A stretch of DNA of 64,000 nt from Xenophilus azovorans DSM 13620 (GTDB taxonomy: Bacteria; Pseudomonadota; Gammaproteobacteria; Burkholderiales; Burkholderiaceae_C). The notes beneath the pieces are model-generated. The model did not search any database. It saw only the letters and a program-made list of their open reading frames with translations, and had not been told where the DNA came from. This document shows, one piece after another, positions 39,396 through 47,413 of this stretch (the first letter of the stretch is position 1; every line of letters begins with the position of its first letter). The translations under genes and the position numbers were made by a program. Where the stretch lies: contig NZ_JQKD01000034.1 in the NCBI RefSeq assembly GCF_000745855.1, positions 1 to 64,000 of the forward strand, given 5' to 3'.

Positions 39396-39980
39396 TTGAT
39401 GATAGGCAAACTCACCGGCATCCTTGCCGAACGCAACCCGCCCCAGGTGGTGATCGACTGCCACGGCGTGGGCTACGAGGTCGACGTGCCGATGGGCACC
39501 TTCTACAACCTGCCGCCGGTGGGCGAGAAAGTGTCGCTGCTCACGCATTTCGTGGTGCGCGAGGATGCGCAGGTGCTCTACGGCTTCGGCACCGCCGCCG
39601 AGCGGGCGGCGTTTCGCCAGCTCATCAAGATCTCCGGCGTCGGGCCGCGCACCGCGCTGGGGGTGTTGTCGGGCATGAGCGTGAACGAGCTGGCGCAGGC
39701 CGTGTCGCTGCAGGAGCCGGGGCGGCTGGTCAAGATTCCGGGCATCGGAAAGAAGACCGCCGAACGGCTGCTGCTCGAACTCAAGGGGAAACTGGGCGAC
39801 ACCCTGGGCCAGGCTGCCGGACTGGCGCAGCCGGCCAGTGATGCGCAGGCCGACATCCTGCAGGCGCTGCTGGCGCTGGGCTACAGCGACAAGGAGGCGG
39901 CGGCCGCCCTCAAGGCCCTGCCCAAGGACGTGGGCGTGAGCGAAGGGATCAAGCTGGCGCTCAAGGCGCTGGCGAAGTAG
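39396..39980 (+). CDS. ruvA: Holliday junction DNA helicase RuvA
   Basis: 194 aa. [34 protein letters not shown] is the RuvA signature. Confidence 0.92.
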
Positions 39981-40001
39981 GCCATCGGGCCTTCACCTTC
40001 T

Positions 40002-40211
40002 TCAATGCGGCAGGCAGGGCTCCACTACGGGGTGGGCCACCTCGCGGCCCATCATGGCGCGTGCATACAGGTAGTTGTGTCGCGACTGTTCGCTGAGCGC
40101 GTCCAGGTCCACCTCGCCGCTGGCGTCGCAGGGGAAGGCGTAGCCGCGCCCTTCGTTGAACAGCGAGCGGAAGCGCAGCTGGAAGTGCCGGGTATCGAGC
40201 AAGGTGTTCAT
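40002..40211 (-). CDS. Small conserved hypothetical protein (DUF)
   Basis: About 69 aa from the internal Met MNTLLDTRHFQLRFRSLFNEGRGYAFPCDASGEVD. Last gene of the lipid operon. Start uncertain. Confidence 0.4.
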   Translation of the reverse strand: MNTLLDTRHFQLRFRSLFNEGRGYAFPCDASGEVDLDALSEQSRHNYLYARAMMGREVAHPVVEPCLPH

Positions 40212-40375
40212 GGTCGTCGACCTCCTGCCAATGGGTCCGATGTCGCCCAATATGCGTCAGAACGGTCGACCATGGGCCATGTTGAAGGCCCGGCCTCCCA
40301 CAGGCCGGCTAAGCCGTGCGGTCTATCACGAAAAACAGGTGGCGATGTGGCGGCGATGCATCAGTACCGCGCGCA

Positions 40376-41311
40376 TCAAGGTACCCACCAGTAGCGCAGC
40401 GCGTGGAAGTAGATGGGCGCGGCGAAGATCACCGAGTCCAGCCGGTCGAGCATGCCGCCGTGACCCTCGATCATGGTGCCCCAGTCCTTGACGCCGCGGT
40501 CGCGCTTGATGGCGGACATCACCAGCCCGCCGAAGAAGCCCATGACGCAGATCATGAAGGCCATGAGCGCTGCCTGCCACGGCGTGAAGGGCGTCGCCCA
40601 CCACAGGGCCGCGCCCAGCAGCGTGGCGCTGGCCACGCCGCCGACCAGGCCTTCCCAGGTCTTGGAGGGCGACAGCTCCGGCGCCACCTTGCGCCGCCCG
40701 AGGAGCTTGCCCCACACGTACTGCAGAACGTCGCTGCCCTGCACCACGATGACGAGGAAGGCGATGAGCAGCAGGTTGCCGCCCTCGAAGCCGGGGATGT
40801 GCAGCGTCAGCAGCGCCGGAACGTGGCTGATGCAGAACACGCACACCATCAGGCCCCACTGCACTTTCGACGTGCGTTCCAGGAAGCGCTTGGTGTCGCC
40901 GCCCAGTGCCGAGAGGATGGGCAGAATCAGGAACACCTCCACCGGGATGAAGATGGCGAACATGCCGTACCACTCGATCCAGACGAGGAAGTACTGCACC
41001 GGCAGCGCGATGTAGAAGGCCGCCGCCATCGCCAGGTGGTCGCCGCGCCGCGTGTAGGTCAGGCTCATGAACTCACGCAGCGCGTAGAACGAGATCAGGT
41101 AGAACAGCACGATCACGCCGCCCTTGCCGAAGGCGAAGGCCAGGCCGATCACCGCCACCATCACCCACCAGGTATTGACGCGGGCGTTGAGGTTGTCGAT
41201 GACCGCGTGCGGGGCGCCGTGCGCGACGCGCCACTTGAGCAGCGCGCCAACGGCGGAGGCCAGGATCAGCACGCCGGCCACGCCGGCGAACAGGTGCAGG
41301 GTGGGGCTCAT
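40376..41311 (-). CDS. cdsA: Phosphatidate cytidylyltransferase (CDP-diacylglycerol synthase)
   Basis: Internal start MSPTLHLFAGVAGV. CTP_transf_1 C-terminal motif (SPSKTWEGLVGGV...MSAIKRDRGVKDWG..GHGGMLDRLDS). Confidence 0.82.
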   Translation of the reverse strand: MSPTLHLFAGVAGVLILASAVGALLKWRVAHGAPHAVIDNLNARVNTWWVMVAVIGLAFAFGKGGVIVLFYLISFYALREFMSLTYTRRGDHLAMAAAFYIALPVQYFLVWIEWYGMFAIFIPVEVFLILPILSALGGDTKRFLERTSKVQWGLMVCVFCISHVPALLTLHIPGFEGGNLLLIAFLVIVVQGSDVLQYVWGKLLGRRKVAPELSPSKTWEGLVGGVASATLLGAALWWATPFTPWQAALMAFMICVMGFFGGLVMSAIKRDRGVKDWGTMIEGHGGMLDRLDSVIFAAPIYFHALRYWWVP

Positions 41312-45543: not shown

Positions 45544-45550
45544 CGTCGGA

Positions 45551-46171
45551 TCAGCGCGGCGCCGCCTCGGCCAATGCGGCGCGCACGCGGCGAACCGTCG
45601 TCCAGCCCACCAGGGCGGCCACCAGCGGCATCAGCGCGGCCGTCCAGTCCGGCAGCGGCCCGCCCAGGGCGATGTACAGCCCGAGCGCGCCAAAGACGAA
45701 GGCGCGGTCGCTCTTGCCCATCGGGCCGTCGTAGCGGCGGCTGGCGCCCACGCTCGGCCCCAGGGCGCCGGCGAACTCGGACAGACCGGCCAGCACGATC
45801 ACCGCGCCGACCCAGAAACCGCCGTGGGGCGACAGCGCCGCGAAGTACGTGGCGAAGGGCAGGTACAGCGCCGCGTCGGACAGCACGTCCGTCAGTTCGT
45901 TGAGGAAGGCGCCCAGGCGGCTTTGCTGGCCGTGCTCGCGCGCGAGCATGCCGTCCACCGCGTTGAAGGCCATGCGAAGGAACATCCACAGCGGCACCAT
46001 GGCGAAGGCGTCGGGGCTCGGCTCGGCGAAGAAGAGCCAAAGGCCCAGCGCCACGGAGATCGCGCAGGCGGCCACGGTGACCTGGTTGGCCGTGACGCCG
46101 GCAGTGGCCAGGCGGCGCACCAGCGGCCGCAGCAGAGCCTGGAAGCGGGGTTTGAGCTGGTAGATCGACAA
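45551..46171 (-). CDS. CDP-alcohol phosphatidyltransferase family protein
   Basis: Polytopic. CDP-OH_P_transf-like motif ([26 protein letters not shown]). Start assigned to an in-frame TTG (..SIYQLKPRF), so the start is uncertain. Confidence 0.6.
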
Positions 46172-46348
46172 GATGGATGGGCGCGGCGGGCGCGCGGAAG
46201 GGCGACGGGCGGGATTCTGCCTATCGGCCCGGGCGCCCCCGCCCATGCCCTGCCAAGTATTGCCGCTTCCGGCAGGCGGTATCGCCTGGTGCACCCGCGC
46301 GGCCTGTCCGGCGACGCCCACCTACAATCCGGCGCTTCGCACCGCGCC

Positions 46349-47413
46349 ATGTCCATCCAGACCGACGACTTCGCTCCGGCCCCGCCTCGCGTGGTGTCCG
46401 CCGCGCCGGCTTCGCCCAACGAGGAAGCCATCGAGCGCGCCCTGCGCCCCAAGCTGCTCGACGAGTACGTGGGCCAGGCCAAGGTGCGCGAGCAGCTGGA
46501 AATCTTCATCGGCGCCGCCCGCAAGCGCCGCGAGCCGCTCGACCACGTGCTGCTGTTCGGCCCGCCGGGCCTGGGCAAGACCACGCTCTCGCACATCGTC
46601 GCCGCCGAACTCGGCGTCAACCTGCGCCAGACCAGCGGCCCCGTGCTCGAAAAGCCCAAGGACCTGGCCGCGCTGCTGACCAACCTCGAAGCGCACGACG
46701 TGCTCTTCATCGACGAGATCCACCGTCTCTCGCCGGTGGTCGAGGAAATCCTCTACCCGGCGCTGGAGGATTACCAGATCGACATCATGATCGGCGAGGG
46801 CCCGGCCGCGCGCAGCATCAAGCTGGACCTGCAGCCCTTCACCCTGGTCGGCGCCACCACCCGCGCCGGCATGCTGACCAACCCGCTGCGCGACCGCTTC
46901 GGCATCGTGGCGCGGCTGGAGTTCTACACCGCCGAGGAGCTGGCCCGCATCGTCACCCGAAGCGCCGGCCTGCTCAACGCGCCGACCGACGCCGACGGTG
47001 CCTTCGAGATCGCCCGCCGCTCGCGCGGCACGCCGCGCATCGCCAACCGCCTGCTGCGCCGCGTGCGCGACTTCGCCGACGTCAAGGGCGACGGCCGCAT
47101 CACGCAGGACATCGCGCACCGCGCGCTGGCCATGCTCGACGTCGACCCGCAGGGCTTCGACCTGATGGACCGCAAGCTGCTGGAGGCGGTGATCCACCGC
47201 TTCGACGGCGGCCCGGTGGGCCTGGACAACATCGCCGCCAGCATCGGCGAGGAGGCCGGCACCATCGAGGACGTGATCGAGCCCTACCTGATCCAGCAGG
47301 GCTACCTGCAGCGCACGCCGCGCGGTCGCATCGCCACGCTGGCGGCCTACCGGCACCTGGGCGTGGCCGCGCCCAGCGGCCGCGTCGGCGACGCGGACTT
47401 GTTCGGCGCCTGA
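46349..47413 (+). CDS. ruvB: Holliday junction branch migration helicase RuvB
   Basis: 354 aa. [36 protein letters not shown] is the RuvB signature. Confidence 0.95.

Follow-up and report, generated by a model that had tools for sequence, protein, structure and literature searches.

A probable ynbABCD-type lipid operon between ruvA and ruvB in Xenophilus azovorans and related Comamonadaceae

Introduction

In Xenophilus azovorans DSM 13620, the genes ruvA and ruvB lie on the same strand and are separated by more than 6 kb of genes on the opposite strand. This layout, found in the first 64,000 nucleotides (nt) of contig NZ_JQKD01000034.1 (assembly GCF_000745855.1; the window hereafter), raises the questions of what the intervening genes encode, whether the split is peculiar to this genome or common to its family, and how it arose. 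Our analysis indicates that ruvA and ruvB are probably separated by a chromosomally fixed, divergently transcribed lipid-biosynthesis operon of the ynbABCD type.

Six coupled genes and a separate small gene between ruvA and ruvB

At about 70% G+C, raw lists of open reading frames (ORFs) in this stretch are crowded with spurious frames, and the genes were set by a frame plot of G+C at third codon positions (GC3) combined with a scan for start codons. The frame plot shows coding on the plus strand at ~39396-39980, unbroken coding on the minus strand from 40002 to ~46200, and coding on the plus strand again from 46349. Combined with the mapping of starts and stops, it gives a spacing of 6368 nt (~6.4 kb) between ruvA and ruvB, holding seven genes on the opposite strand:

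39399-39980, plus: ruvA, 193 amino acids (aa); Pfam RuvA_N, HHH_5 and RuvA_C
40002-40211, minus: small 69-aa gene without family match, convergent with ruvA, with its own Shine-Dalgarno sequence
40376-41311, minus: ynbB-like CdsA paralogue (phosphatidate cytidylyltransferase family), last gene of the operon; Pfam CTP_transf_1, 3.7 × 10−69
41308-42006, minus: PlsC-like lysophospholipid acyltransferase; Pfam Acyltransferase, 1 × 10−18
42003-42443, minus: 146-aa helical protein with hydrophobic segments; no Pfam or NCBIfam match
42440-43768, minus: ynbD-like fusion of a PAP2-type membrane domain and a CX5R dual-specificity phosphatase; BLASTP, weak Pfam PAP2_3, PAP2 and DSPc
43765-45543, minus: ynbC-like fusion of a hydrolase and a class I S-adenosylmethionine (SAM) methyltransferase; Pfam Hydrolase_4, 8 × 10−69, and Methyltransf_20, 2 × 10−151
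45551-46171, minus: ynbA-like CDP-alcohol phosphatidyltransferase family protein, first gene of the operon, TTG start; Pfam CDP-OH_P_transf
46172-46348: divergent intergenic region of 177 nt between the ynbA-like gene and ruvB
46349-47413, plus: ruvB, 354 aa; Pfam RuvB_N, 1 × 10−81, AAA_lid_4 and RuvB_C

Both ruv genes are intact, with full Pfam domain sets and 90-95% identity to relatives; RuvB is 95% identical over residues 1-354 to RuvB of Xylophilus ampelinus, its closest counterpart in the species scan described below, and an exact-sequence look-up of RuvB gave no match. The domain sets and the minus-strand GC3 periodicity throughout the interval bear out the original prediction, made from the sequence alone, that two plus-strand ruv genes are split by genes of the opposite strand. 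That prediction had also placed all seven genes in one translationally coupled unit. Coupling is found for six of them, which are joined by four 4-nt ATGA overlaps (43765-43768, 42440-42443, 42003-42006 and 41308-41311) and one 7-nt gap (45544-45550), whereas the seventh ORF is separate and unrelated, beginning 164 nt past the stop of the sixth operon gene, with an AGGAGG Shine-Dalgarno sequence 9 nt upstream of its ATG. The 69-aa protein is identical in two metagenomic contigs that are ~96% identical to the window (L091 and L092), in which 5-7 nt differ, all synonymously, and because of this pattern we regard the ORF as a real gene. It is missing from all other related loci checked, and matches no Pfam or NCBIfam model; its absence from those loci puts it outside the conserved unit.

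The start codons required two decisions. The start of ruvA, initially read as TTG 39396, is most likely the ATG one codon further on, at 39399, since every homologue has 193 aa and the same start is aligned with that in L091. For the first operon gene, the most likely start is TTG 46171, which yields an N-terminus (MSIYQLKP) common to its homologues, and the divergent intergenic region before ruvB therefore measures 177 nt. An Rfam scan of positions 38000-48500 (E up to 0.1) found no family, RNA structure in the spacer between the ynbB-like gene and the 69-aa gene was not unusual (z = −0.76), and a scan for terminators stayed at chance level.

The six-gene block resembles ynbABCD with two additional genes

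Because of the domain matches, the full-length BLASTP alignments to the four E. coli Ynb proteins and the intact catalytic motifs, the block can be identified as a ynbABCD-type lipid cluster with two extra genes and a changed gene order. The E. coli K-12 operon was reached by way of tblastn searches of plasmid records, which led to E. coli records and from these to K-12. In BLASTP comparisons with the E. coli proteins, the YnbA-like protein shows 44% identity over its full length (E = 7 × 10−47), the YnbB-like protein 39% over 302 aa (E = 1 × 10−61), the YnbD-like protein 39% over 433 aa (E = 2 × 10−84), and the YnbC-like protein, of 592 aa, 59% over 581 aa. The YnbB-like protein carries the CdsA signature KD..GHGG.LDR.D in its C-terminal catalytic half, and the PlsC-like protein has both the HX4D (HSSHGD) and FPEGTR motifs. 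For the YnbD-like protein, the matches to Pfam PAP2_3, PAP2 and DSPc are weak and under the gathering thresholds, and the nearest solved chain is DUSP23 (1 × 10−4); motifs read from the sequence are a CX5R P-loop (CCALGFSR), PSxH (PSLH) and HxxxD (HHFID). The hydrolase half of the YnbC-like protein is of the lysophospholipase/monoacylglycerol-lipase type and matches monoacylglycerol lipases in a sequence search of PDB, and the invariant residues of the fusion include an AxSxG nucleophile elbow (AQSVG), D236, H266 and a SAM-binding DxAxGxG motif (DIAAGHG). Its AlphaFold model is poor overall (predicted local distance difference test score, pLDDT, of 63), and the Foldseek matches of this model, to 3ocj, to small-molecule C-/O-methyltransferases and to the Rv0183 lipase, support only the general folds.

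For the 146-aa protein, we identified 26 homologues, all annotated as ‘hypothetical’, which share a conserved Arg-rich core (ERYLAFRLRLD..LF / GTRRL) flanked by hydrophobic helices. The protein evolves fast (40-49% identity even within Variovorax), and its gene keeps the same position in the cassettes of Lysobacter, Burkholderia and Hydrogenophaga. Its AlphaFold2 model is all-helical with a pLDDT of 92, and a fold search of PDB gave no significant match (best E = 0.8).

The Asp residues of the CDP-alcohol phosphatidyltransferase motif bind the catalytic metals. In the YnbA-like protein of the window, the motif reads N-x2-D-G-x2-A-R-x8-G-x3-N-x3-D-x3-D (NAxDGxLAR..., residues ~68-98), with Asn in place of the first Asp, as in E. 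coli YnbA and in 113 of the 150 family representatives compared (P0267-P0416; the family comprises about 220 clusters at E up to 1 × 10−30). Asn also stands at the third Asp position, an additional Asp follows after one helical turn, and the later Asp residues can therefore be aligned in more than one register.

The ruvA|ruvB junction is frequently broken in Comamonadaceae

To place this arrangement in the family, we scanned with RuvB, taking one genome per species, and mapped the window proteins onto the 80 loci obtained, which come from Comamonadaceae and Sphaerotilaceae-type genera. Among the 60 loci that show both genes, ruvA and ruvB were adjacent in 31 (gap of −1 to 82 nt), including those of Sphaerotilaceae-type genera, and were interrupted in 29, with inserts of 0.5-7.5 kb; a further 11 loci showed no ruvA within 10 kb upstream of ruvB. 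The corresponding counts of interrupted loci were 12 of 57 for phoH|ruvA and 5 of 52 for ybeY|phoH. At least seven unrelated types of cargo occupy the ruvA|ruvB junction; inserts with no relation to the ynb cassette are alpha-carbonic anhydrase, a secreted trypsin-like/DUF5648 peptidase, a caspase-like peptidase, a Liv-type ABC transporter operon, a TonB-dependent receptor and a ResIII helicase.

In 13 related loci, ruvB is adjoined by these six genes with order and orientation unchanged:

From the species scan: L001, Xylophilus; L002, Xenophilus arseniciresistens; L003-L005 and L007-L010, seven Variovorax species
Added by context look-up: L085, metagenomic; L091 and L092, the contigs ~96% identical to the window; L093, Pseudacidovorax intermedius

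The outer flanks within this group are collinear, with dtd-ybeY-phoH-ruvA on one side and ruvB, a cation diffusion facilitator (CDF) transporter gene and a metallophosphoesterase gene on the other. Outside this group, ~60 loci retain the upstream block as far as ruvA, with no conservation of the genes after ruvB. The divergent ynbA-ruvB junction is the constant side of the interval in all members of the clade; the ruvA side varies, and the gap on that side keeps growing within the clade, as in Xenophilus aerolatus (L090, 10698-20582), where ruvA is followed by more than 10 kb of other genes (for a glycosyltransferase, a sigma-54 two-component system, a radical SAM enzyme and hydrolases), with no ruvB in reach. 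Elsewhere, in 13 Comamonadaceae species (L011, L017, L019, L025, L030-L032, L042, L053, L057, L064, L070 and L072), the divergent upstream neighbour of ruvB is a gene for an alpha-type (‘eukaryotic-type’) carbonic anhydrase, at the site held by the ynb cassette in the window.

As judged from these gene maps, the split is neither family-wide nor peculiar to this genome, and represents one clade's version of a commonly broken junction; we infer that ruvA|ruvB in Comamonadaceae is a permissive operon boundary, at which cargo of different kinds has settled in different lineages. The locus does break synteny with the common state, as first proposed, and the comparison with relatives that had been suggested as a check shows that the interleaved arrangement is not universal and that the six-gene block also occurs at non-ruv loci. 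The accompanying premise that ruvA and ruvB are normally adjacent is weak in this family, since about half of the loci have other genes in the junction. The integrity of the ruvAB operon is thus not conserved in Comamonadaceae.

Expression of ruvA, ruvB and the cassette

Because 6.4 kb of convergent and divergent genes intervene, we infer that ruvB is not co-transcribed with ruvA and must use a promoter of its own in the 177-nt divergent region. On the ruvB side of this region, a CTAnAnT block 20-30 nt before the ruvB ATG is invariant in 10 aligned loci (here TACAAT, 46323-46328). On the cassette side, GGATTCTGCC (46212-46221) reads GGCAGAAT on the minus strand and is −10-like; in the form (T)GGCAGAAT it resembles an extended −10 element ~43 nt before the ynbA-like start, and it recurs upstream of ynbA in at least 10 loci, including Lysobacter-like ones.

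We found no match to the LexA box CTGT-N8-ACAG in the 64-kb window, which agrees with the original prediction that neither ruv gene is preceded by one. Near matches (up to 2 mismatches) were absent upstream of ruvB, and upstream of ruvA there was one site with 2 mismatches, inside phoH, compared with 136 such sites window-wide. Since the examined sequence has no E. coli-type SOS box and the junction is often broken, regulation inferred from E. coli should not be carried over to Comamonadaceae.

The cassette at other sites and other cargo around ruvA

The same six-gene order was found at non-ruv sites in Hydrogenophaga (where ruvA and ruvB are adjacent), in Pseudorhodoferax (with one extra gene) and in a Lysobacter metagenome-assembled genome (MAG), and in Burkholderia ambifaria the cassette, again at a non-ruv site, is split into two divergent units. 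The extra gene of Pseudorhodoferax (L083, 11764-12996) encodes 410 aa with faint ankyrin matches and lies between the ynbC-like and ynbD-like genes. Shorter versions of the cassette are carried by E. coli IncF colicin plasmids and alphaproteobacterial megaplasmids. One conjugative colicin M plasmid (L086, E. coli IncFIA/IncFIC, NZ_CP045714.1) has a compact ynbA/ynbB/plsC/ynbC set at 7443-10758, whose YnbC is 58% identical to that of the window and which adjoins ProQ/FinO-like and toxin-antitoxin genes. The six-gene order is also found at an unrelated site in Pseudomonas protegens (PMC13541209), the only listing that turned up in the literature, which yielded nothing on Methyltransf_20 (PF12147) or on the gene combination. 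Because the block recurs, as one unit, at unrelated loci of Hydrogenophaga, Pseudorhodoferax, Lysobacter, Burkholderia and E. coli, the cassette behaves as a relocatable module on longer time scales.

In a Polaromonas MAG (L094, 7545-15416), the cassette lies between phoH and ruvA, in the orientation seen in the window. PhoH, RuvA and RuvB of this locus are 92-96% identical to those of Polaromonas sp. A23, which has no cassette at the site, whereas the cassette proteins are closest to Variovorax (YnbB ~90%, YnbC 84-87%) and nest among Variovorax sequences in the tree. A gene for a Lysyl_endopep_N/DUF5648 peptidase likewise occurs on both sides of ruvA: between phoH and ruvA in L001 (Xylophilus ampelinus), L085, L090 (Xenophilus aerolatus), L091 and L092, and between ruvA and ruvB in L012, L014, L016, L035 and L075 (Acidovorax, Paracidovorax and a Ramlibacter MAG). 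Identity between the two groups of peptidases (42-47%) is close to that within groups (48-51%), and the orientation is preserved on both sides. The window itself (compare 39358-39398) lacks the 2.3-kb peptidase gene that the 96%-identical contigs carry between phoH and ruvA (L091, 418-2747). The hairpin GGCCGCAGCGCGGCC (39373-39387), just upstream of ruvA, resembles the terminator of the peptidase gene of those contigs, and because this terminator-like hairpin remains, the comparison suggests that the gene was recently deleted from the window.

Age and origin of the arrangement

Comparison of these loci suggests that the cassette was gained by the phoH-ruvA-ruvB neighbourhood no later than in the common ancestor of Variovorax, Xylophilus, Xenophilus and Pseudacidovorax and would have been inherited there since. 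The arrangement would thus be derived rather than ancestral for the family, because ruvA and ruvB are adjacent in 31 of the 60 loci, and because Hydrogenophaga combines adjacent ruvAB (L006 and L015) with a cassette elsewhere (L081). Within the ruv-located group, neighbour-joining trees of YnbC + YnbB + YnbD and of RuvB + RuvA + PhoH recover the same Xylophilus-type and Variovorax-type groups, and none of the 13 related loci lacks the cassette, whereas the neighbouring peptidase gene is polymorphic.

An alternative history, in which the block is a recent, horizontally acquired island that was inserted in this strain or species and has since lost its mobility genes, draws on the movement of the cassette between replicons and lineages (38 PLSDB records, including E. 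coli IncF colicin plasmids and Shinella/Rhizobium megaplasmids), on its different loci in different genera and on the Variovorax-like copy in the Polaromonas MAG. The composition of the block is, however, native to the window, with a GC content of 0.722 vs. 0.707 ± 0.038, a GC3 of 0.950 vs. 0.933 ± 0.041 and a codon-usage distance of 0.86 vs. 0.84 ± 0.31 (all within 0.5 standard deviations of the window means); codon usage, which had been proposed as a check, thus matches the rest of the window. Only short, imperfect direct repeats of the kind expected by chance flank the block, the only tRNA gene (56138-56214) is 9 kb away, and Pfam and NCBIfam searches of the block proteins found no integrase, transposase or other mobility gene, in agreement with the initial reading. 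Moreover, the cassette has the same position and orientation in 13 loci from four genera, with protein identities of 72-94%, the range of the flanking housekeeping genes. Given the native composition and the fixation in the clade, we rejected the recent island, which is largely refuted and which we consider very improbable. The original prediction of an inserted accessory module holds in the evolutionary sense, as the module occurs at unrelated loci, and no sign was found of a recent or mobile-element insertion.

Local reshuffling could also have produced the present order: the cassette would first have lain between phoH and ruvA, as in L094, and a tandem duplication of the cassette-ruvA segment followed by reciprocal loss would have swapped the order while keeping the orientations. 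The two layouts do differ only in the order of cassette and ruvA, with orientations preserved, and the unrelated peptidase cargo shows the same switch of side. On the other hand, relics of ruvA, ruvB or phoH were sought in three intergenic regions of the window and none was found (best E above 0.2), the nesting of the L094 cassette among those of Variovorax agrees better with a secondary transfer than with an ancestral layout, and independent, possibly homology-assisted, insertions at neighbouring operon boundaries fit the data as well. We consider this history unlikely, although less so than the recent island. A broader idea, which we consider less likely than not, sees in the phoH-ruvA-ruvB neighbourhood of Comamonadaceae a true hot spot of homology-anchored exchange, and would account for finding the same cargo on either side of ruvA. 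Selection for the arrangement itself, with cassette and ruvB sharing a bidirectional regulatory region (for instance, to link membrane remodelling with recombinational repair), would accord with the constancy of the ynbA-ruvB junction while the ruvA side varies, and with the short conserved intergenic blocks. Such coupling nevertheless seems very improbable, since elsewhere the divergent neighbour of ruvB is the alpha-carbonic anhydrase gene (13 loci) or ruvB follows a peptidase gene or ruvA, the same cassette lies away from the ruv genes in many taxa, including E. coli, and the region contains no shared operator-like palindrome and no LexA box.

We thus favor an old, chromosomally fixed ynbABCD-type operon, and several points weigh against this conclusion or parts of it. 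The Pseudorhodoferax cassette, which is at a non-ruv locus, nests beside the Xenophilus cassette in the tree, and the Polaromonas MAG carries its Variovorax-like cassette between phoH and ruvA with ruvA and ruvB adjacent; on these sequences, a history of single ancestral insertion does not look clean. The trees are neighbour-joining trees without support values, and the junction statistics count species rather than independent events. As promoter elements, the two intergenic blocks are candidates by resemblance to the consensus only, and a scan with the sigma-70 consensus found no full promoter, nor were there terminators above chance. With respect to function, canonical CDP-alcohol transferase activity of the YnbA family is not assured, because the first motif Asp is replaced by Asn, and the accessible literature assigns no function to YnbA, YnbC or YnbD and identifies the product of the cassette in no organism.

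A possible lipid pathway

From its domain content, the set of six genes can be read as a closed pathway. The PlsC-like enzyme would supply phosphatidic acid by acylation, and the YnbB-like enzyme would activate it to CDP-diacylglycerol (CDP-DAG), an activity demonstrated in the literature for E. coli YnbB only. The YnbA-like enzyme might then move the phosphatidyl group onto some alcohol or phosphate acceptor, after which the YnbD-like enzyme would remove or transfer phosphate and the YnbC-like enzyme would deacylate and/or methylate the product. The outcome would be a minor, dedicated phospholipid or a pyrophosphate-linked glycolipid anchor.

E. coli YnbB is a CdsA paralogue that makes CDP-DAG in vitro. 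It is unable to take the place of CdsA in bulk phospholipid synthesis, and it contributes to making GlcNAc-PP-diacylglycerol, which anchors the glycolipid MPIase (PMC6362211; reviewed in PMC7018664). A more specific proposal is that the cassette forms a self-contained pathway for a pyrophosphate-linked (MPIase-type) or other unusual lipid anchor, in which the YnbA-family enzyme with its Asn motif would transfer phosphatidyl from YnbB-made CDP-DAG to sugar-1-phosphate or a similar anionic acceptor, and YnbD and YnbC would process the product. We regard this proposal as speculative and rather unlikely. The less acidic site of YnbA could suit an anionic acceptor such as sugar-1-phosphate and so link YnbA to the MPIase anchor, which is a lead rather than a result; if true, it would assign a missing enzyme step that is now attributed to CdsA/YnbB themselves.

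Other features of the window

A CDF transporter gene lies on each side of the region, upstream of dtd (35834-36757) and directly after ruvB (47430-48380). Near the start of the window, the minus strand carries a complete type I-C CRISPR-Cas operon (162-7792; Cas3, Cas5d, Csd1/Cas8c, Cas7, Cas4, Cas1 and a probable Cas2), with a GC3 of 0.80-0.91, which is below the window mean of 0.93 and therefore suggests a foreign origin. At 11252-18982, also on the minus strand, a gene for an 1854-aa protein that combines DUF3686 (‘ATPase involved in DNA repair’), DUF7902 and an AAA domain lies beside a gene for a 718-aa protein without Pfam match, and the pair may be a two-gene repair or defence system.

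Comparison with known systems

Compared with the E. coli-type ruvAB SOS operon, the window shows the same RuvA and RuvB domain architectures, on the same strand and in the same order; however, the two genes are not adjacent and not co-transcribable here, and neither has an E. coli-type LexA box. With chromosomal integration hot spots and islands at conserved genes, the locus shares conserved flanks (phoH, ruvA and ruvB) with variable, lineage-specific cargo between them. It differs from them in having no integrase, tRNA, att-like repeats or compositional signal, and in that its cargo appears ancient and is fixed in a clade of several genera.

A likeness also exists to the pathways of phosphatidylinositol phosphate (PIP) synthase and PIP phosphatase in mycobacteria and Bacteroides and of archaetidylinositol phosphate (AIP) synthase in archaea, in which CDP-DAG and an alcohol phosphate yield a phosphatidyl-X-phosphate that is then dephosphorylated. 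Among NCBIfam models and solved structures, those nearest to the YnbA-like protein are AIP/PIP synthases, that is, archaeal and bacterial inositol-phosphate lipid synthases. Its scores are nevertheless far below the family cut-offs (71.5 vs. 180 bits for NF040950 and 57.4 vs. 170 bits for NF045883), it does not have the canonical D-x2-D-G-x2-A-R-x8-G-x3-D-x3-D motif of these enzymes, and no inositol-1-phosphate synthase was found within the cassette of the window or within the versions in L081, L083, L084, L087 and L093. A phosphatidylinositol pathway was rejected on these three grounds; in addition, such pathways have no counterpart of the lipase/methyltransferase fusion of the cassette.

The closest known relative is E. 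coli K-12 ynbABCD (b1408-b1411). All four of its products have full-length homologues in the window with the same domain fusions, and their RefSeq product names match those of homologues of the window proteins. In E. coli, the operon is accessory to soft-core, being present in 4623 of 5426 complete genomes, and its ynbA promoter is activated by BglJ-RcsB (PMC3950696); this activation is known for the E. coli promoter only. The gene order also differs (A-B-C-D in E. coli vs. A-C-D-x-plsC-B here), and the K-12 operon is without counterparts of the PlsC-like acyltransferase and the 146-aa helical protein, whereas the six-gene version that includes both is common to soil taxa of the beta- and gammaproteobacteria. 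Neither the interrupted ruvAB nor the cassette overturns current understanding; the arrangement is real but fairly ordinary, and its value lies mainly in the comparative context and the side observations; for ruvAB, the context is that in about half of the species sampled the two genes have others between them. The poorly understood ynbABCD genes gain a wider context through a conserved form of six genes, including an acyltransferase and a small helical protein, which is widespread in beta- and gammaproteobacteria and occasionally plasmid-borne. This fuller version, together with tractable hosts such as Variovorax, could help to identify the lipid that the genes make.

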